A stretch of DNA of 64,000 bases, from contig CAWJRG010000010.1 in NCBI GenBank assembly GCA_963845185.1, positions 288,001 to 352,000 of the forward strand. Direction: 5' to 3'. The stretch is from an uncultured bacterium. Its GTDB lineage: Bacteria > Oederibacteriota > PGYV01 > CAWJRG01. The first letter of the stretch is position 1; the number at the start of each line of letters is the position of its first letter. This document shows positions 9,155 to 56,656 of this stretch, in pieces. Both the position numbers and the translations under genes were made by a program. Below the pieces are notes generated by a model. The model did no database searches, had not been told where the DNA came from, and saw only the letters and a program-made list of their open reading frames with translations.

Positions 9155-10361
9155 TTTTAATACCCCTTTTAATCCTTTGTTTTCCTGTCAAAAGTACATT
9201 TATAAGCCCTTTTTTCAGAAGTTCAAATTTTCCTTTTCTATTTTCTTCGATATTTAATTGTTTATCAATATTTGAAATAATAGAAGCAATTTCACGTTGT
9301 TCAATTATAGACAATTTAACAATCTTAAAATTAACAATGTCCCTTTGAAAAAGATGGGGAATACTACTGCCGGATATTTTTTCCTTTATTAAGCTTGTAA
9401 AATTATTTGATTGGAAATATTGGAATACAAATTCAGCATCATATAATTTTTCATCAGTTCTTATAAGCATCATTGTTCCATTTATAGTTGCCTTATCAGG
9501 CAATTCATCAATATAAGCCACTCTTCCAATTGTTCCATCTTTACTTATGATAATATCTTTTTCTTTTAAAATAATTTCATGCGATTCTTCATATCTTTCA
9601 ATTGAAATATGTTGGCATCTATTCCAGATTACTTTTCCGTTTTCAATATGATTACCTGCTATAAGATAGGGCCCCGATTTAGTATATTCTTTTGAAGATA
9701 ATGCTCTCCATCCAATTCTTGCTTTAATATATGAAAAATCTCCTAGCCTAACCACCTCCCACTCCTCTGGTATCTCCCCAAGTTCGGTTTTTTTAAACTT
9801 CTTATGCCCTATGCCTCTTGTCAGCAGTTTCTGCATCATGCCTTTTTTCAGCCGCTCGGTCTTCTGTATCTTCTCCTCCGCCATCGAGATGGCGTCGTCA
9901 ACAGTGGACAAGACTTTGGCGATTTTGTTTTGCTCAATGATAGGAGGCATAACAGTTTTTCTTCTATACACAATGTCTCTATTTAATCCCGGAATAGCAG
10001 AGGAAGTTTCCATTTTTGATAAATCAAGCTTGTTTAATAAATAATAAAAGTATTTTAAATCAATATCTTTTTGCTTAAATTTAATAAAATATGTTGTATC
10101 TATAGCCCAAAAATCAGTATTGCACAAATGAATTGACCCAATAGACCCCTTTCTACCTACTAATATACCCGGCCCCTTAGCATTGTAGGAATCGTGATTG
10201 CCAACAAGTCCATTTGAACCATATACCGGATATTTTCCTCCATCCCGTTCATTCCTTTTTAAGGCAGAACCATATTCAAGTGTACAAATATCCCCAATTG
10301 ATATAAGGTTCCACTCTTCCGGTATCTCGCCAAATTCTGTTTTTTTATAGCCGGATTTCAT
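9144..10361 (-). CDS. hsdS: Type I restriction-modification specificity subunit S
   Basis: Two KKTExGEIPEEW repeats, PPIIEQNKIA and EQREIA conserved regions, LKKG..LLT coiled coils. Confidence 0.95.
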   Translation of the reverse strand: MKSGYKKTEFGEIPEEWNLISIGDICTLEYGSALKRNERDGGKYPVYGSNGLVGNHDSYNAKGPGILVGRKGSIGSIHLCNTDFWAIDTTYFIKFKQKDIDLKYFYYLLNKLDLSKMETSSAIPGLNRDIVYRRKTVMPPIIEQNKIAKVLSTVDDAISMAEEKIQKTERLKKGMMQKLLTRGIGHKKFKKTELGEIPEEWEVVRLGDFSYIKARIGWRALSSKEYTKSGPYLIAGNHIENGKVIWNRCQHISIERYEESHEIILKEKDIIISKDGTIGRVAYIDELPDKATINGTMMLIRTDEKLYDAEFVFQYFQSNNFTSLIKEKISGSSIPHLFQRDIVNFKIVKLSIIEQREIASIISNIDKQLNIEENRKGKFELLKKGLINVLLTGKQRIKRGIKNDI

Positions 10362-15055: not shown

Positions 15056-16495
15056 TTATTCACAAATAATTTTTACTTCTTTAGCCGCTTTTGTTTCGTC
15101 CGGCCTTGATATCTCGGTCATCATTGGCGCGGACTTGATTTTTTCCGGGTCTTTCTCGGCTAGCCCGGCTATTTCTATCATTGCTGAAATAAATTCATCC
15201 AGGGTTTCTTTTGACTCTGTTTCCGTAGGCTCAATCATTATTGCTTCTTCCACCACCAGCGGGAAATATATTGTCGGCGGGTGTATGCCGCGGTCTATCA
15301 GCGCTTTTGCTATGTCAACGGCGTGTACCCCGTTTTTTGCCTGGTTTTTAGCTGAAAACACGCATTCATGCATGCATGTTTTGTCATAAGGCAAATAATA
15401 ATATTTTTTCAATTTTTCTTTAACATAATTCGCGTTTAAAACTGCTTTCTCAGCTACGTCAATCAGGCCTTCCTTCCCGAGCATTAAAATATAAGCGTAA
15501 GCCTTGAGCATGACTCCGAAATTCCCGAAAAACGAAGCCACTGCTCCTATTGTGTCCTCTTTATGTATAATTGCCTTGTACTGGTTGTCCATTCCGCGTT
15601 CCACGATTGGCGTCGGTAGCAATCCGGAAATTTTCTCTGATACTCCCACAACGCCCGAACCCGGGCCACCGCCTCCGTGAGGTGTTGAAAAAGTCTTGTG
15701 CAAATTTATGTGAATTATGTCAAAACCTATGTCCCCGGGCCTTACTTTGCCAAGAATTGCGTTTAAATTCGCGCCGTCGTAATACATGAGCGCGTCGTAC
15801 TTGTGTGATATATCTATTATTTCCTTTACCCTTTTATGGAAAATCCCGACCGTATTCGGCATGGTCATCATTACGCCTGCGACCTCGTCGTTCATCTTTT
15901 TCTTGAACAGGTCAAGGTCCATCTCGCCCTCGCTGTCTACAGGCACTGATATTACAGTGTAACCGCCCATTGCAGCGCTCGCAGGGTTTGTGCCGTGCGC
16001 CGAGTCCGGTACTATTACGTATTTTTTCTTATTGCCCTTGTTTTTATGGTAAGCAGCCATTAAAAGTATGCCTGTTAATTCGCCGTGTGCGCCGGCATAT
16101 GGCTGTGTAGTGAACTTTTTCATGCCTGTTATCTCTGAAAGCAAAAAGGACAGATTATAAACAACCTCCAGCGCTCCCTGGGCCGACTTTTCGTCTATAT
16201 ACGCGAGGTATGGATGCAAATCAGTAAACCCGGGCAGCACGCTGACTGCCTCGTTTATCTTGGGATTATATTTCATGGTGCATGAGCCCAGCGGATAAAA
16301 ATGCGTGTCGACCGAGAAATTTTTACGCGATAAATTTATATAATGCCTTATTACGTCAAGTTCCGAAAGTTCGGGCAAATCAGCGTCAATACTGCTTAAA
16401 TATTTAGCGTCTATTTTTTTGATTGTATCCGGATCCGCTTTCCCCGCGTCAACGCCTTTTCTTCCTTTTACGCTCTTCTCAAAAATCAGCTTCAT
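15056..16495 (-). CDS. gcvPB: Glycine dehydrogenase (decarboxylating) subunit 2
   Basis: PLGSCTMKYNP, AGAHGE, NLHKTFSTPHGGGGPG, IEPTETES. Confidence 0.97.
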   Translation of the reverse strand: MKLIFEKSVKGRKGVDAGKADPDTIKKIDAKYLSSIDADLPELSELDVIRHYINLSRKNFSVDTHFYPLGSCTMKYNPKINEAVSVLPGFTDLHPYLAYIDEKSAQGALEVVYNLSFLLSEITGMKKFTTQPYAGAHGELTGILLMAAYHKNKGNKKKYVIVPDSAHGTNPASAAMGGYTVISVPVDSEGEMDLDLFKKKMNDEVAGVMMTMPNTVGIFHKRVKEIIDISHKYDALMYYDGANLNAILGKVRPGDIGFDIIHINLHKTFSTPHGGGGPGSGVVGVSEKISGLLPTPIVERGMDNQYKAIIHKEDTIGAVASFFGNFGVMLKAYAYILMLGKEGLIDVAEKAVLNANYVKEKLKKYYYLPYDKTCMHECVFSAKNQAKNGVHAVDIAKALIDRGIHPPTIYFPLVVEEAIMIEPTETESKETLDEFISAMIEIAGLAEKDPEKIKSAPMMTEISRPDETKAAKEVKIICE

Positions 16496-17823
16496 AGACT
16501 CTCCCTCACTGCTTTTGCAAAAAGGTTCATCTCGTTTTCCGTGCGTTTCTCTGTAACCGCGACAATAAGGTAATTGTCTTTGTTGTCGTAAAAAAGCGAG
16601 GCAGGCAGGCCTGCGCTGAATCCTCGGCTCAACATTTTCTTGGTAAAATCCTCTGCCTTGACAGGCAGTTTTATCGTGAATTCGTTGAAAGTCTGGCCTG
16701 ATTTCACCTCGATATTTTTTATTTGCATAAGTTTTTCTTTCAGATATCCGGCTTTTTCAAGGTTTATCAACGCGAGGTTCCTGAATCCGTCTTTACCGAG
16801 CAGGGAAAGGTATACTGCTGCACGTAAAGCGCAAAGTGCCTGGTTTGAGCATATGTTTGAAGTGGCTTTTTCCCTGCGTATGTGCTGCTCCCTTGCCTGT
16901 AAAGTCAGGACAAAACATCTTTTGCCGTTTTTATCGACCGTTTCCCCTGCTATCCTGCCCGGCATTTTCCTTGCGAATTTTTTGTCTGCTGTCATTATAC
17001 CGAGGTACGGCCCTCCGAAAGAAAGCGGCATGCCGAGCGACTGACCGTCTGCCACTGCAATGTCTGCTTTCATTTCTCCTGGCTTTTTAAGCAAGCCAAG
17101 GGATATAGGATAAAAAACAAGTATATTAAGAGCGCCTTTTGACGTTGAGTATTCAAAAATATCACTGTAATCGTCAACCACTCCAAAAAAATTCGGGTTC
17201 TGCATTATTACGGCCGCAGTATTGTCGTCTATAAGCGAATTTATTTTTTTTCTGTCAGAGCTTATGTCGCTTAAATCAGCTTCGACTATCTCGACATCGA
17301 GGTTTATTGTGTATGTATATAGTATCCTTGTATATAAAGGGTTTACTCCCTTATCTATTACGACTTTGCTTTTATTTGTTATCCTTATTGCCATTGCCAT
17401 TGCCTCGTATAAGGCAGTGCCGCCGTCGTACAAGGAAGCGTTTGCCGCGCCTAACCCGGTCAGCCGCGCCATCATTGTCTGGTACTCGAATATCGCCTGT
17501 AATGTGCCCTGGGAAGCTTCCGGCTGGTAAGGCGTGTATGCAGTGTAAAACTCAGAGCGCGAAGATACGCTGTCAACCGCAGCAGGTATAAAATGGTCAT
17601 AATATCCCCCGCCTAAAAAATTCACGTAATCTATCCTGTTTTTATCAGCAAGCGTTTTAAAAACTTTCATTGTTTCATATTCAGTCATGCCTGCCGGGAT
17701 GTTGAATGATTTTGGGGAAAATTCTCCGGGTATGTCCTTAAATAAATCGGAAACAGACCCAATGCCTATGCCCGAAAGCATTTCCTTTACTTCTTTTTCA
17801 GTGTGAGGCGTGAATGTTGCCAT
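16492..17823 (-). CDS. gcvPA: Glycine dehydrogenase (decarboxylating) subunit 1
   Basis: YTAYTPYQPEASQG, REQHIRREKATSNICSNQ. Confidence 0.97.
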   Translation of the reverse strand: MATFTPHTEKEVKEMLSGIGIGSVSDLFKDIPGEFSPKSFNIPAGMTEYETMKVFKTLADKNRIDYVNFLGGGYYDHFIPAAVDSVSSRSEFYTAYTPYQPEASQGTLQAIFEYQTMMARLTGLGAANASLYDGGTALYEAMAMAIRITNKSKVVIDKGVNPLYTRILYTYTINLDVEIVEADLSDISSDRKKINSLIDDNTAAVIMQNPNFFGVVDDYSDIFEYSTSKGALNILVFYPISLGLLKKPGEMKADIAVADGQSLGMPLSFGGPYLGIMTADKKFARKMPGRIAGETVDKNGKRCFVLTLQAREQHIRREKATSNICSNQALCALRAAVYLSLLGKDGFRNLALINLEKAGYLKEKLMQIKNIEVKSGQTFNEFTIKLPVKAEDFTKKMLSRGFSAGLPASLFYDNKDNYLIVAVTEKRTENEMNLFAKAVRESL

Positions 17824-17824
17824 T

Positions 17825-18211
17825 TTATTCAAGGCCTTCTATGTATTTTTTGTACGCCGTTGTATCCATCAGGTTCTTGGTTTCAGCCGCGTCCTTTACT
17901 TCAATCTCTGCTATCCATCCGGCTGTATAAGGTTCTTTGTTTATAAGCTCGGGTGTAGCGTCAAGGCCGCTGTTTATTGCCACAACCTTGCCGGATAAAG
18001 GCGAATAAACGTCGCTTGCCGCTTTGACCGACTCCACTCCTGTCAAAACCTCGGATTGTTTCACCTGCTTGCCTGTGGCCGGCAGCTCGACAAAAGTAAT
18101 ATCTCCTAATTTATGCTGGGCATAATCAGTAATGCCGATTTTTGCTTTTGCACCTTCTATTTTTGCCCATTCATGTTCCTTTGTGAAATAGTAATTGTCA
18201 GGTACGTTCAT
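17825..18211 (-). CDS. gcvH: Glycine cleavage system H protein
   Basis: HEW, GITDYAQ, VESVKAASD lipoyl-lysine motif. Confidence 0.97.
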   Translation of the reverse strand: MNVPDNYYFTKEHEWAKIEGAKAKIGITDYAQHKLGDITFVELPATGKQVKQSEVLTGVESVKAASDVYSPLSGKVVAINSGLDATPELINKEPYTAGWIAEIEVKDAAETKNLMDTTAYKKYIEGLE

Positions 18212-18398: not shown

Positions 18399-19493
18399 TC
18401 ATTCGTTATTTTTTATTGAAGTATTCTTTATAAAAGGCGGCGCTGTCACGATTGCCTCAGCCGCGCCCCTTTCTAGTTCGATTGTCAATTTGCCAGCCTC
18501 CTGGGAATATTCCCTATCAACGTAGGCAAATGCTATTCCTTTATTAAGATGCGGCGAAAATACCCCGCTTGTAACAAATCCTTTTTCCCTGCCGTCCACC
18601 ATTATTTTGTTCAAGTGCCTCGGCGTCCTCCTGCCATCCACTGCCAGCCCCACAAGTTTTCTTTTTATGCCTGCTGATTTTTGTGCAAGTAACGCCTGCC
18701 TGCCTGTAAATTCTTTTTCAAAATCAAGGAACCTTTCCATGCCGGCGTCAAGCGGTGTGGTCTCTTCAGTTAACTCATCGCCGTATAAAGGATAGCCTGC
18801 CTCAAGCCTGAGAATGTCCCTTGCGCCAAGGCCAGCCGGTTTTACGTCAGGGTCTTTAAGCATGAGCCTCCACAAATCAATGCCCTTGCTTATATCCACG
18901 TAAACTTCAAACCCCAGCTCGCCCGTATACCCTGTCCTGCTTATTATGTACTTACCACCCAGCATGTCGAATAAATCAAAAGCATAATATTTAAGTTTTT
19001 TAATGTTGTCTCCTGCTATTTTTTTCATGGCAGACATTGCGAGCGGTCCCTGTAAATCAAGTTTGACCGTCCTTGCGGAAATATTCTCAAAAGAAGCGTT
19101 TTTCGAAAGCCCCTTGCTTATTATCTCCGCGTCCCGCTGCTCGTTTGAAGCATTTACTACTATCATCCACTCGTCGTCTTTTTTCCTGTAAATTATTAGA
19201 TCGTCTATTATCGTGCCGTTTGGATTCAGGAGGAATCCGTACCTGCATATATTATTTTTCATTTTAACTAACGGGTTTGTTATTATTTTATCGAGCGACG
19301 ATTTAGTAGGGTCTTCCTTTATCAGGAATTCACCCATGTGGCATATGTCGAATACTGAAGCTTTTGTCCGGGTATGTTTTGATTCTTCGATTATGCTTCC
19401 ATAGTGGATTGGCATGTTCCAGTCTGCAAAAGGAGCCATAAGTGCATTTAATTTTAAGTGTTCTTCGTAAAGTATTGTATTTTTATAGTCCAT
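18399..19493 (-). CDS. gcvT: Glycine cleavage aminomethyltransferase T
   Basis: FDICHMGE, SRTGYTGE, GLGARDILRLEAG. Confidence 0.96.
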   Translation of the reverse strand: MDYKNTILYEEHLKLNALMAPFADWNMPIHYGSIIEESKHTRTKASVFDICHMGEFLIKEDPTKSSLDKIITNPLVKMKNNICRYGFLLNPNGTIIDDLIIYRKKDDEWMIVVNASNEQRDAEIISKGLSKNASFENISARTVKLDLQGPLAMSAMKKIAGDNIKKLKYYAFDLFDMLGGKYIISRTGYTGELGFEVYVDISKGIDLWRLMLKDPDVKPAGLGARDILRLEAGYPLYGDELTEETTPLDAGMERFLDFEKEFTGRQALLAQKSAGIKRKLVGLAVDGRRTPRHLNKIMVDGREKGFVTSGVFSPHLNKGIAFAYVDREYSQEAGKLTIELERGAAEAIVTAPPFIKNTSIKNNE

Positions 19494-19604
19494 TATTATT
19501 ATCCTTTAATTGTGGGAACAAACTTAATCTAATGATAAAATTTCGAATCATTTTATAATAAAATCATTGAATACGTCAAGGGCATATATTTTTTTGTAAT
19601 TACC

Positions 19605-20528
19605 CTACTCCGCAGGCTTTTTTGACCATATATTCGCCAGTATTGAACCTGTAACAATACACCATACAGCGAACAAAGCGTTCGGCAGGGCTGATTGCGG
19701 GCCCAAGTATTTCAAAGCCAGCACAGCTCCGAGTCCAGCGTTATGCATGCCGACTTCCAGCGTCAGCGTACGTCGCATCTTTTCCTTAAACCTATAAAGC
19801 ATTCCAGCGGCGTATCCAATCACAAGCCCGAAAAAATTATGCAGGAAAACTGCCACAAAAATAATTATGTTCGCCTGCTGTAAATATTCCCTGTTAAGCG
19901 CCACCACCAGGCCGCAGATAAAAGCTATAAAGAGTGTTGAAATGGCCGGGAAGACCGCTTTTATTTTTTCAACCTGCTTTTTCATAAAATGCTTTATGGT
20001 AAATCCGACTAAAAGCGGCAATATCACCATCTGGATTATGCTGAAAAACATGGGCCAGAATGCCATTTTTATGTATGTACTCCCGTAGAAAAGCACAAGG
20101 GCGGGCGTGACAAAAGGCGCGAAAAAAGTTGTTGTGCTTGTAATCGCTATTGAGTAAGCCACGTCTGCTCCAGCAAGGTATGAAATTATGTTTGACGCCA
20201 TTGCGCCAGGCGCCGAGCCTGCAAGTATCAGGCCTATGGCGAGGTTAGGAGGCAGCTTCAAAGTTTTTGCGAAGAACCACCCCAAAAACGACATTACCCC
20301 AAACTGCGTCAGCGTGCCGAGCAGAACCACAAAAGGATTTTTTAAAAGCGGCCTAAAATCTTCAGGCGACATGACAAAGCCTATGCCGAGCATGGCAAAC
20401 ATGAAGAAATAGTCAAGGTATGGCCTTAATATGATAAGCGACTTAGGGAAAAGATATCCCGCAAAGCACACAAGCAATACCCAAACAACGAGAAACTTCG
20501 TAAACCAGCTACAGATTTTGTTAAACAT
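19605..20528 (-). CDS. Bile acid:sodium symporter family transporter
   Basis: Polytopic membrane protein; PGAMASN, EVGMHNAGLG. Confidence 0.88.
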   Translation of the reverse strand: MFNKICSWFTKFLVVWVLLVCFAGYLFPKSLIILRPYLDYFFMFAMLGIGFVMSPEDFRPLLKNPFVVLLGTLTQFGVMSFLGWFFAKTLKLPPNLAIGLILAGSAPGAMASNIISYLAGADVAYSIAITSTTTFFAPFVTPALVLFYGSTYIKMAFWPMFFSIIQMVILPLLVGFTIKHFMKKQVEKIKAVFPAISTLFIAFICGLVVALNREYLQQANIIIFVAVFLHNFFGLVIGYAAGMLYRFKEKMRRTLTLEVGMHNAGLGAVLALKYLGPQSALPNALFAVWCIVTGSILANIWSKKPAE

Positions 20529-20702
20529 TCGCAACCTCTATATGCCGTATAAAAAATATTTTTATTTAATTGCACTTCATTTTTCATTATCAGCCAAGTC
20601 TGAAAAAAAAGCAAGTCCAGGTTTGCATTTTTCAAATTGCTATAAAACTTGATCCCAGCCTTTCTTTTTGGCTTTATTTAAAGAATTTCGAGCATATAAA
20701 AT

Positions 20703-20737
20703 AAAAAAGCCCTCCCGGCTAAGGAAGGGCTTTTTTT
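20703..20737 (-). terminator. Rho-independent terminator
   Basis: GCCCTTCC/GGGAGGGC stem followed by T6 on the minus strand; T-tracts on both sides. Confidence 0.8.
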
Positions 20738-20923
20738 ACCGCCGCCGTTTGTTAGGTGTGAGCCACTTTTTCAAATGGCAAATGATATAAGGGGGTATAT
20801 CAAAAGGTGTGAGGCGGCGGTAAATTGTAAAACAGTCCAGGTCTTTTATGCCTCATTAATTGTTTGATATTTTCTTCATCTTTAAGCTTTATCAAATAGC
20901 TGTTATTCTCTTACTTAACTTAT
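20703..20923 (-). ncRNA. Candidate stand-alone structured small RNA (unknown family)
   Basis: Promoter at 20930-20958, 12-bp closing stem, GAAA-tetraloop hairpin, terminator, no ORF longer than about 18 codons. Confidence 0.6.
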
Positions 20924-20929
20924 GCTGAA

Positions 20930-20958
20930 AGTTTACCATACGTTTTGTAATCTGTCAA
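20930..20958 (-). promoter_or_regulatory. Sigma70-type promoter with extended -10
   Basis: TTGACA-17 nt-TAAACT with TG upstream of the -10. Confidence 0.7.
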
Positions 20959-21194
20959 GATATATTATAAAATATTTTCAATTAAAATATACAATAGATT
21001 TGCTGGTTTTTTTGTATGTTTTATTGTTATACGCATAATAATATGCAAAATAGGCTATAAGTTGTAAACAATTGAGCCATTAGGGACAATTATACCAACA
21101 ATTCATGATTAATATGAAACTCTTCGGTAATATCAAATGAGTCTTACATTGGACTGGTTTTATCGGACAGAAATGTTAAAATTGATATTTTAAA

Positions 21195-22916
21195 TTAGAA
21201 ACTTTTTTCTTCCTTTACTATTTGCACAATTTTATCAAACACTGTTGTCTTATCCATCAGTTCAAAATCCTTGTTCCTTCTCAGTTTTATTTCTACTTTC
21301 CCATCTTTGAAATTCTTTTCGCCAACTGTCACCCTTAACGGGAACCCTATCAAATCCGCGTCCTTGAATTTTGCGCCCGGGGATATGTCCCTGTCGTCTA
21401 TTATCACATCTATGCCTGCGCCCTTTAATTTCTCGTACAAGTCAAAAGAGTATTTTACGCCTTCTTCATATTTCATGTTTACAGGGGTTATTACAGCTTC
21501 ATACGGCGCTATTGCAAATGGCCATATTATCCCGTTTTCATCGTTATTCTGTTCGATCGCGGCAGCTACTATTCTGGTGATGCCTATGCCGTAACAGCCC
21601 ATTATAAATTCCTTTGGTTTTCCATCTTCATCAAGGAAAGTTGCCTTCATTGATTTGCTATATTTCGTGCCCAGGTAAAACACATGCCCGATCTCTATTC
21701 CCTTTTGTTCCGATAAAACACCGTTGCATTTCGGGCATCCGTCGCCTTTCTGTACTCTTATAATATCTGCTGTCATGTCCTCTTTAAAATCCCTGTTGCG
21801 GTTCACGCCAATATAATGATACTCATGTTCGTTACCGCCGCACACAATGTTTTTCATGGCTGCCACTGTGGTATCAATTATCAGCGTAATGCCTTTTTGC
21901 TTGATGTTTACCGGCCCTGCAAATCCTACAGGTGCGCCTGTTTGCGAAGTAATTTCTTCGGGCGTCGCAAGCCTTAACTCGGAAGCATTAAGCGCATTTT
22001 TTAATTTTATCTCGTTTATTTCCCTGTCGCCCCTCATCATTGCGGCAACCATTTTCCCGTCTGCAATATACAATATTGTCTTTGCGGTGTCCTCCGGCTT
22101 TTTATTAAGGAACCCTGCCAGTTCTTCAACTGTCCTGATGTTCGGGGTATGCACCTTTTCCATCTTTTCTTCAGGCGCGTCCCCGCCCTTATTTTCAATC
22201 TTTCCTGTTGCTTTTTCAACGTTTGCCGCGTAATCGCACTTTACGCAGTATACTATTGTCTCCTCGCCGGTATCGGCCAAAACCATAAATTCCGCAGAAG
22301 ATGTGCCGCCTATTGCTCCCGGATCAGCCTCGACCGGCCGGTACTTGAAGCCTATCCTCTTGCAGATTTTGTCGTAAGTTTCATACATTTTTTTGTAAGC
22401 AATAAGCGCGTTTGGTTCGTCACGGTCAAAAGAATAGGCGTCTTTCATTATAAATTCGCGTGCCCTCATGACGCCGAAGCGTGGCCTTATCTCGTCGCGG
22501 AATTTTACCTGAATCTGATACAGGTTTATTGGAAGCTGCTTATAGGAACTTACCTGCCTGCGTATTATGTCGGTGATTACTTCCTCATGCGTTGGGCCCA
22601 GAGCCCATTCCTTGTCATGCCTGTCTTTTAGCCGCATCATCTCGCTGCCGTAAAGGTTCCAGCGCCCGGTTTCCTGCCAAAGCTCCGATGGCGAGAGTAT
22701 CGGCATCAGGATTTCCTGCGCTCCTGCTTCATTCATTTCCTCCCTTATTATATTAATCACTTTCATTGTGGACTTCCAGCCTAAAGGAAGCAGGTCGTAA
22801 ATACCTGCACCGATTTTAATTATCAACCCTGCCCTGAGCATAAGCTTATGGCTTATAGTTTCAGCCTCTTTCGGTGTTTCCCTTATGGTATTGATAAACG
22901 CCTTTGTCCATCTCAT
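21195..22916 (-). CDS. proS: Proline--tRNA ligase (with editing insertion domain)
   Basis: LGPTHEE, KFRDEIRPRFG, GIEIGHVF, MGCYGIG. Confidence 0.97.
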   Translation of the reverse strand: MRWTKAFINTIRETPKEAETISHKLMLRAGLIIKIGAGIYDLLPLGWKSTMKVINIIREEMNEAGAQEILMPILSPSELWQETGRWNLYGSEMMRLKDRHDKEWALGPTHEEVITDIIRRQVSSYKQLPINLYQIQVKFRDEIRPRFGVMRAREFIMKDAYSFDRDEPNALIAYKKMYETYDKICKRIGFKYRPVEADPGAIGGTSSAEFMVLADTGEETIVYCVKCDYAANVEKATGKIENKGGDAPEEKMEKVHTPNIRTVEELAGFLNKKPEDTAKTILYIADGKMVAAMMRGDREINEIKLKNALNASELRLATPEEITSQTGAPVGFAGPVNIKQKGITLIIDTTVAAMKNIVCGGNEHEYHYIGVNRNRDFKEDMTADIIRVQKGDGCPKCNGVLSEQKGIEIGHVFYLGTKYSKSMKATFLDEDGKPKEFIMGCYGIGITRIVAAAIEQNNDENGIIWPFAIAPYEAVITPVNMKYEEGVKYSFDLYEKLKGAGIDVIIDDRDISPGAKFKDADLIGFPLRVTVGEKNFKDGKVEIKLRRNKDFELMDKTTVFDKIVQIVKEEKSF

Positions 22917-56580: not shown

Positions 56581-56656
56581 TGGTGGAGCTGATCGGGATT
56601 GAACCGACGACCCTCAGACTGCCAGCCTGATGCTCTCCCAACTGAGCTACAGCCCC
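56581..56656 (-). tRNA. tRNA-Ala(GGC)
   Basis: GGGGCTGTAGCTCAGTTGGGAGAGC..CTGGCAG..GGTTCAATCCC..CTCCACCA; 76 nt, G3:U70 pair, encoded CCA. Confidence 0.97.

Follow-up and report, generated by a model that had tools for sequence, protein, structure and literature searches.

The window (the whole stretch of 64,000 nucleotides that was analysed, from an uncultured bacterium) carries on its minus strand a structured element upstream of a symporter gene and the glycine-cleavage genes gcvT, gcvH and gcvPA (Table 1). The preliminary description of the element had listed a promoter, an AU-rich leader of about 100 nt, a 12-bp stem, two hairpins, a duplicated motif and a terminator, and all of these are present on the minus strand. 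Since the minimum free energy fold of this strand gives exactly that architecture, from the promoter side to the terminator, with the closing stem P1 as a 12-bp helix enclosing the two hairpins, the description is correct in this respect. Between the promoter and P1 lie 106 nt of AU-rich sequence, and the linker that joins hairpins 1 and 2 reads AUUU. The fold scored z = -5.1 on the minus strand, with none of 200 shuffles as good, versus z = -1.8 on the plus strand; the 88-nt core by itself scored z = -6.6. The CCCCCU loop of hairpin 1 and the CACACCU of both junction strands are all unpaired in the predicted fold, as had been claimed for the C-rich parts of the RNA. Moreover, not a single G occurs among the 36 unpaired nucleotides of the core of the window copy. 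The genome has a G+C content of 42%, and at a G frequency of about 0.21 the chance of such a composition is about 2 in 10,000.

Table 1. Features of the small RNA locus, the neighbouring genes and the sibling copies in the same genome.
Feature	Position	Strand	Remarks
Locus under study, window copy (sibling a)	20703-20958	-	
sRNA promoter, TTGACA (20958-20953), 17 nt, TAAACT (20935-20930)	20930..20958	-	10/12 against the consensus
5' leader, AU-rich, about 100 nt	20825..20923	-	predicted start site
Closing stem P1, 5' strand, UUUACCGCCGCC	20813..20824	-	fold and covariation
Junction J1/2, UCACACCUUUU, with the first UCACACCU (20812-20805)	20802..20812	-	read from sequence
Hairpin 1, GAUAUA-CCCCCU-UAUAUC	20784..20801	-	fold; near-invariant family element
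Hairpin 2, GCCAUUU-GAAA-AAGUGGC	20762..20779	-	fold; variable element
Junction J3/1, UCACACCUAACAAAC, with the second UCACACCU (20761-20754)	20747..20761	-	read from sequence
Closing stem P1, 3' strand, GGCGGCGGUAAA	20735..20746	-	fold and covariation
Intrinsic terminator of the sRNA, separate from P1	20703..20736	-	fold and terminator prediction
Weak promoter-like site before the symporter gene, TTGCTT-17-GATAAT	20586..20614	-	8/12; function uncertain
Sodium/bile-acid symporter family gene (PF01758, 1.2e-36)	19605..20534	-	likely start ATG at 20528
gcvT own promoter, TTGACG-18-TAAAAT	19550..19579	-	10/12; conserved across the order
gcvT	18399..19493	-	conserved downstream neighbour of the sRNA
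gcvH, after gcvT	17825-18211	-	
gcvPA, after gcvH	16492-17832	-	
Sibling b	C9:9820-9898		
Sibling c	C10:424091-424157		
Sibling d	C8, about 9629-9713		

Outside the core the locus is conserved to a different degree. The leader sequence differs even within one genus, where the core is identical, and the last 30 nt alone are shared with the nearest metagenome relative, contig L149. The same contig retains the promoter, the core and the terminator next to a different downstream gene, and the terminator stem is preserved there by compensatory changes. We read the leader in the window copy and in relatives and found no conserved small peptide.

A search of the whole window against Rfam 15 at the gathering score returned a tRNA at 56584-56656 as the sole match. 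When the region 20400-21250 was searched with E values up to 10, the output consisted of 20 weak, terminator-driven matches (e.g. Thr_leader, RefA1) and no family was found. The Rfam check thus bears out the earlier view of a stand-alone structured RNA outside known families. A DNA search of relatives matched the 80-nt core and nothing beyond it, with identities of 75-87% in several families, and also brought up more copies within the window's own genome. Using a covariance model built from 22 copies, we detected the 85-nt core in 17 of 24 genomes from the order to which the window belongs and in none of the 75 other genomes of the phylum; conservation, proposed earlier as a check on the RNA, was therefore found, with covariation and well beyond what chance would give. 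In the seven motif-less genomes the model identified no degenerate motif near gcvT, its best match (E = 0.2) being a plain hairpin.

The distribution was further followed with a signature pattern searched over 185,579 species (one genome each), which gave 18 loci with 14 true copies; the remaining four were discarded as chance matches because they have no P1. The true copies come from this lineage only and carry the labels Candidatus Goldbacteria / Goldiibacteriota, candidate division FCPU426 and uncultured Spirochaetia, two of the 14 being labelled with another taxon or having no taxon name. Among metagenome contigs the same pattern matched 25 loci, 16 of them with true copies, which were mostly identical to the genome copies and added about five new sequences. 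Our searches of the literature returned no account of a regulatory RNA in Goldbacteria or FCPU426. The element is a previously uncatalogued small structured RNA family, limited to one order of uncultured bacteria.

The model-guided alignment comprised 47 matches with 29 distinct sequences, in which 96.9% of the cells held standard pairs. Both sides had changed at 14 of the 22 pairs, a number that none of 500 shuffles reached, and sliding the partners by 1-3 columns as a control left 22-49% of the cells paired. This alignment leans towards the structure because it was fitted to the covariance model; an independent MAFFT alignment pointed in the same direction, with pairing in 92.8% of cells and two-sided changes at 11 pairs. 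Among the 29 sequences, P1 had changes on both sides at 8 of its 11 pairs, and all four modelled pairs of hairpin 2 covary, with 100% of the cells paired. The covariation supports P1 and hairpin 2. Hairpin 1 (GAUAUACCCCCUUAUAUC) behaves in another manner: it is near-invariant, three of its six pairs never vary in the 29 sequences, and its ACCCCCUUAUAU (columns A26-T39) is unchanged in all 22 seed sequences. In the copies of type 1 (defined below) all 18 nt of the hairpin are invariant, the stem included. Since the stem hardly varies, hairpin 1 appears to be conserved as sequence, beyond the mere need for a helix.

One pair of P1 is U-G in 7 of the 29 sequences. On the opposite strand this pair would be C-A, which favours the minus strand as the transcribed one; the promoters and terminators of the orthologues lie on that strand as well, so that the orientation originally assigned to the RNA was right. 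These data also bear on the idea that the element functions as DNA, either as a REP- or MITE-like palindrome or as a protein-binding site whose folding would be incidental. As DNA, both P1 and hairpin 1 are indeed palindromic, and the window's genome has four copies. Such an explanation is nevertheless very improbable, given that the element keeps a syntenic position in 17 genomes from 9 families instead of being scattered, that the copy number is 1 to 4, that the G-U pairs fit one strand only and the minus strand folds with a far better z-score, and that oriented promoters and U-runs are present.

The unpaired segments differ in how far they are shared. The duplicated UCACACCU, emphasized in the preliminary description, does occur twice at the locus; it is not, however, the best-conserved element and is limited to this genome and L149. 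At the 5' site the orthologues have CACUCCU, or CUUUUCU / a CU-tract, and at the 3' site CACGCCU followed by an A-rich run. In most orthologues J1/2 is UCACUCCUCUA, which resembles the 3' tail of the organism's 16S rRNA, GGAUCACCUCCUUUCUA, and is similar to the 16S tail UCACCUCCUUUCUA minus three letters. The invariant loop region ACCCCCUUA likewise resembles an anti-Shine-Dalgarno sequence.

The genome of the window (3.5 Mb) contains exactly four dispersed copies, designated siblings a to d, and the 12-mer CACACCUAACAA of J3/1 occurs four times in that genome, each time within a sibling. The expected fold was obtained for all four (z between -4.1 and -7.5). In siblings c and d, P1 is preceded at a distance of about 12-15 nt by a TTGACA-17-TAnAAA promoter, and in siblings b, c and d a run of U6-7 directly follows P1 on the 3' side; these three would therefore be RNAs of about 85-95 nt that use P1 as the terminator stem. 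Hairpin 2 is missing in siblings c and d, and sibling d also lacks the 5' CACACCU. Furthermore, co-oriented tandem pairs, about 85 nt apart, were found in six genomes (G004, G006, G007, G011, G016 and G018). Their members fall into type 1 and type 2, distinguished by J1/2, and the linkers between them are unconserved. In G013 the two types are divergent and lie 1.25 kb apart. The preliminary description had overlooked the three further siblings and the tandem copies, as well as the synteny with gcvT in all 17 genomes.

Signals for transcription accompany most copies. Of 20 copies examined, 17 have a promoter-like site that matches at least 10 of the 12 consensus positions and lies upstream of P1 at a distance of 12-113 nt (the exceptions being G000b, G002 and G013b), and six of the sites match at all 12. 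Among the 24 3'-most copies, 6 carry a canonical terminator separate from P1, 11 show 5 or more U within the 8 nt that follow P1 and 7 lack both signals, so that 17 of the 24 have a termination signal at P1 or shortly beyond it. The family has what is generally expected of a stand-alone sRNA, namely its own promoter and terminator, a position outside the neighbouring mRNA and a covarying structure. We consider it very probable that the locus is best described as a separately transcribed small RNA gene that is inherited beside gcvT. The gene would encode a non-coding RNA of about 220 nt, with both ends predicted, in which the 85-nt module would be the functional unit. It would be transcribed from its own strong promoter, as a transcription unit separate from the glycine-cleavage operon, and transcription would stop at the terminator just after P1 or at P1 with its U-run.

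In each of the 17 motif-bearing genomes, which represent 9 families, gcvT has upstream of it a copy that shares its contig and strand. No gene separates the two in 12 of these genomes, where the distance is 106-583 nt. Other genes intervene in the remaining five. In the window's genome it is the symporter, which no other genome has between sRNA and gcvT promoter; G001 has a PMT_2-type glycosyltransferase there, G021 a Gp49/HTH pair, and G002 and G010 each have a xanthine/uracil permease that lies on the opposite strand. Other copies adjoin unrelated genes, which encode SmpB (convergent), a serpin, a TPR protein and secreted proteins without a Pfam family. A promoter of the form cCTTGAC-17/18-TATA(A/C)(A/T) precedes gcvT, in the window's genome between the symporter and gcvT, and the same promoter was seen in motif-bearing relatives and in six of the seven motif-less genomes, the examination covering all of these but G015. 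The symporter had also been credited with a promoter of its own; the site in question matches only 8 of the 12 consensus positions and was absent from the output of the promoter scan, and we regard it as weak.

The association with gcvT suggests another explanation, namely that the RNA acts in cis on the glycine-cleavage operon, as an attenuator or riboswitch whose module would sense glycine, a folate/one-carbon compound, a protein or a tRNA. By this account the module would set how often transcription stops at P1 with its U-run or at the terminator, and regulated read-through would add to the output of the gcvT promoter. We judge the sensing role unlikely, and the control of read-through equally so. 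In line with both are the constant co-orientation with gcvT, mostly with no gene between, the 11 copies in which P1 precedes a U-run, the tandem copies in six genomes, as in glycine riboswitches, and the metagenome contig L139, in which P1 with U7 lies about 70 nt before gcvT and no promoter is recognisable between them. In addition, the classic glycine riboswitch (RF00504) was found in none of the 24 genomes of the order. This riboswitch is also rare in the phylum as a whole (4 of 99 genomes, all of one family), so its absence from the order does not amount to a clean replacement pattern.

Several observations speak against control in cis. The promoter of gcvT follows the RNA in nearly all genomes and is no different where the motif is missing, and the genes inserted before gcvT in five genomes are unrelated and in two of them lie on the opposite strand. 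Since the next gene is convergent in G002 and G010 (the permease) and in G013a (smpB), a role as 5' leader is excluded for these copies. Unrelated loci are also where siblings b, c and d, as well as G013a, are placed. The separate terminators do not overlap P1 and we saw no convincing antiterminator. The tandem copies, for their part, stand about 85 nt apart with unconserved linkers, and the two types of G013 belong to divergent units. Moreover, the unpaired core has almost no G, which would be unusual for a ligand pocket. Thus, of the features typical of riboswitches, the family displays the association with one gene family, whereas its placement in 5' UTRs is not consistent.

A broader version of the sensor idea would have the family form a new sensor RNA class, responsive to glycine or one-carbon status, that holds the place of the glycine riboswitch in this order; we regard this as distinctly unlikely. 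The same low likelihood applies to the two forms it could take, an attenuator with read-through into gcvT or a ligand-sensing RNA released in trans, and to the suggestion that the sibling and tandem copies would extend the reach of such a sensor. If a cis-acting or ligand-sensing role were true, the family would be a second, unrelated RNA solution to the control of glycine cleavage.

The composition of the exposed regions points elsewhere. They are G-free, C/U-rich and similar to anti-Shine-Dalgarno sequences, and hence probably pair with purine-rich sites in trans. These features, together with the lack of Hfq and CsrA genes in the window's genome, match the logic of the C-rich sRNAs RsaE/RoxS and LhrC, which favours pairing in trans. 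That the RNA acts by pairing with purine-rich sites, as one of a family of sibling sRNAs, is in our opinion the best reading, and we hold it tentatively, at a little less than an even chance. In such a mechanism the GC-rich P1 would hold a large junction open, and the junction would display a hairpin with an AU-rich stem and a CCCCCU loop together with two C/U- and C/A-rich single strands; the variable hairpin 2 would be dispensable. Pairing in trans would involve the G-free segments (CUCCU / CACACCU and ACCCCCUUAUAU) on one side and purine-rich sites, for example ribosome-binding sites of mRNAs, on the other, and it may repress translation with no need for Hfq, much as RsaE/RoxS or LhrC would. 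In this picture the dispersed copies of the window's genome, four in number, and the tandem ones found elsewhere would count as sibling sRNAs.

We looked for targets of such pairing in several ways. The complement of the invariant 11-mer had 58 matches across the order, 24 of which were the sRNA genes themselves; the 34 non-self matches compare with 54 for the reversed control, and the 11 contexts viewed were not at comparable genes and had none in common. The complement of a 13-mer gave three non-self matches in unrelated places. When duplex energies were calculated for about 2,890 start regions of the genome, 96 sites were at or below -18 kcal/mol versus 76-224 in shuffled or reversed controls, and the start regions of gcvT and of the symporter in the window's genome ranked 2636 and 1469, respectively. 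Similarly, when the cognate RNA was paired with the gcvT start region in nine orthologues, none of the nine fell below 5% of the shuffles, and the gcvT start regions do not count among the predicted targets. The energy-based scans amount to a weak negative, since the gene calls were crude and accessibility was ignored. The one site of note, which speaks for pairing with purine-rich partners, is a 15-nt perfect complement to CCCCUUAUAUCAUUU at C5:99574-99588, over the Shine-Dalgarno sequence and 9 nt before the ATG of a gene for a large secreted protein at C5:99564; the site is not conserved elsewhere. Action in trans on ribosome-binding sites, as put forward in the preliminary description, thus gained no enrichment from the target searches, and we continue to infer it.

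The lack of enrichment among mRNA targets is what one would also see if the trans-acting RNA served as a decoy or sponge, either for an RNA-binding protein whose recognition sites would be the invariant hairpin and the CACNCCU strands or for a G/U-rich RNA. This we consider rather improbable, although several features fit it. In type 1 the invariance of hairpin 1 over 18 nt, stem included, is typical of sequence-specific recognition, and two alike CACNCCU strands flank the hairpins. The tandem and multicopy arrangement would raise the capacity of a sponge, and the six promoters at perfect consensus suggest high abundance. On the other hand, no candidate partner turned up, neither an Hfq nor a CsrA gene was found in the window's genome, and gcvT is the sole conserved neighbouring protein gene. 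Furthermore, the 5' CACACCU is missing in sibling d and hairpin 2 in siblings c and d, so that any binding site would be confined to hairpin 1 and J3/1. More generally, the closing stem and the invariant hairpin would also fit a module that binds a protein or a ligand.

With 29 distinct sequences, strong covariation and an invariant hairpin of 18 nt, the family is well defined, and every genome that bears it has it linked by descent to the glycine-cleavage operon. It provides a concrete way into the study of post-transcriptional control in a phylum that seems to lack Hfq and CsrA, the absence of both having been checked in the window's genome. The family is a solid addition to the catalogues of RNA families; in kind it is a bacterial sRNA and as such no surprise.

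Among characterized RNAs, RsaE/RoxS of Bacillales offers the nearest parallel for pairing in trans. Like the RNA described here, it is small, has a promoter and a terminator of its own and exposes several C-rich motifs; those of RsaE/RoxS pair with Shine-Dalgarno regions, and it acts on central metabolism. RsaE/RoxS is Hfq-independent, and its motif ACCCCUUUG may resemble the ACCCCCUUA of the present family. The two differ in that there is no match to the Rfam RsaE model here at E values up to 10, the phylum is another one, and one closing stem surrounds the junction in our family. GcvB of enterobacteria is likewise an sRNA whose gene lies beside a gcv gene and which is tied to amino-acid metabolism, as the present gene lies next to gcvT. 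GcvB, however, is G/U-rich, Hfq-dependent and divergent from gcvA, in contrast to an RNA that is C-rich and co-oriented with gcvT in a genome without Hfq.

The LhrC RNAs of Listeria carry UCCC motifs. LhrC has been presented as a multicopy sRNA (PMC4132741), and LhrC1-5, with pyrimidine-rich exposed motifs in several copies, recall the four dispersed and the tandem copies described above. They differ in being simple hairpin RNAs, with no relation to the present family in sequence or structure. The glycine riboswitch RF00504 also stands upstream of gcvT, is sometimes tandem and has a fold similar to a three-way junction. Its model had no match in the window or in the 24 genomes of the order, and its G/A-rich core differs from the C/U-rich core found here, where the tandem copies are about 85 nt apart. 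Another difference is that the gcvT promoter, together with further genes in five genomes, intervenes between RNA and gene, and that the terminator in the window is clear of P1. Identity with either the glycine riboswitch or RsaE was rejected, as the model searches were negative. Finally, a motif called gcsH (WRC-77-1) is a structured RNA that is rare and lies upstream of a glycine-cleavage gene (Narunsky et al. 2024, PMC11109978). It has six reported representatives from two genera of Desulfobacteraceae and is called distinct from glycine riboswitches by its authors (PMC11109978). Compared by placement and distribution, it resembles the present family in being rare, lineage-restricted and placed before a glycine-cleavage gene, and differs from it in lineage, since the signature of our family had no true copy outside its own and the gcsH motif was reported from Desulfobacteraceae.

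The promoter of gcvT, the first gene of the glycine-cleavage cluster and the conserved downstream neighbour of the sRNA, is strongly conserved irrespective of the presence of the sRNA, as seen when the window site was compared with loci L073-L077, L080 and L082, in six motif-less genomes (those without the sRNA core) and motif-bearing relatives. The sole copy seen to resemble a true 5' leader lies on a metagenome contig (L139, 1178-1340), where U7 directly follows the 12-bp closing stem P1, the gcvT start is located about 70 nt further on and no promoter could be recognised between the two.

Exclusively in G000, the genome of the window, an inserted symporter gene separates the sRNA from the gcvT promoter. 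The symporter's own promoter is weak at best, thus its expression might rely on transcripts that read through the sRNA terminator. In G021, a Gp49/HTH toxin-antitoxin-like pair sits between the sRNA and gcvT. The G021 gcvT itself (G021:C121:24255-25275, L094 and L097) gives two adjoining matches, one to residues 2-201 and one to residues 222-363, hence it may carry a frameshift or be split. The motif-less genome G020 carries, where others have the sRNA, a distinct promoter-to-terminator unit, which may be an unrelated small RNA.

Coordinates of features at gcvT loci and of the sRNA-related sites elsewhere in G000
Feature	Position	Strand	Details
gcvT promoter	window 19550-19579	-	cCTTGACg, 17-18 nt spacer, TATAcT or TATAAAAT; ~60 nt before gcvT start
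Sodium/bile-acid symporter family gene	window 19605-20534	-	
G020 unit	L075, ~150-350 nt 5' of gcvT		TTGACA...TATTAT, ~170 nt, then GCGCCGCAACAATCGTTGCGGCG and U-run
Large secreted protein gene	G000:C5:95338-99564	-	signal peptide MNLQKHFKRINIPKVIILFILLIASNTAYA...
Sibling d	G000:C8:9629-9713 (= L165:330-414)	-	

Elsewhere in G000, the ribosome-binding site of a gene on contig C5 encoding a large secreted protein is perfectly complementary, over 15 nt, to a stretch that runs from hairpin 1 (the near-invariant GAUAUA-CCCCCU-UAUAUC) into the linker after it in siblings a and b, the sRNA copies in the window and on contig C9, respectively. For sibling d, another of the four copies, the predicted partner of the 5' junction strand AAAUGUAUAAGA is the 3' side of hairpin 1 together with the linker (UCUUAUAUCAUUU), and this pairing would sequester the same segment that complements the C5 ribosome-binding site.
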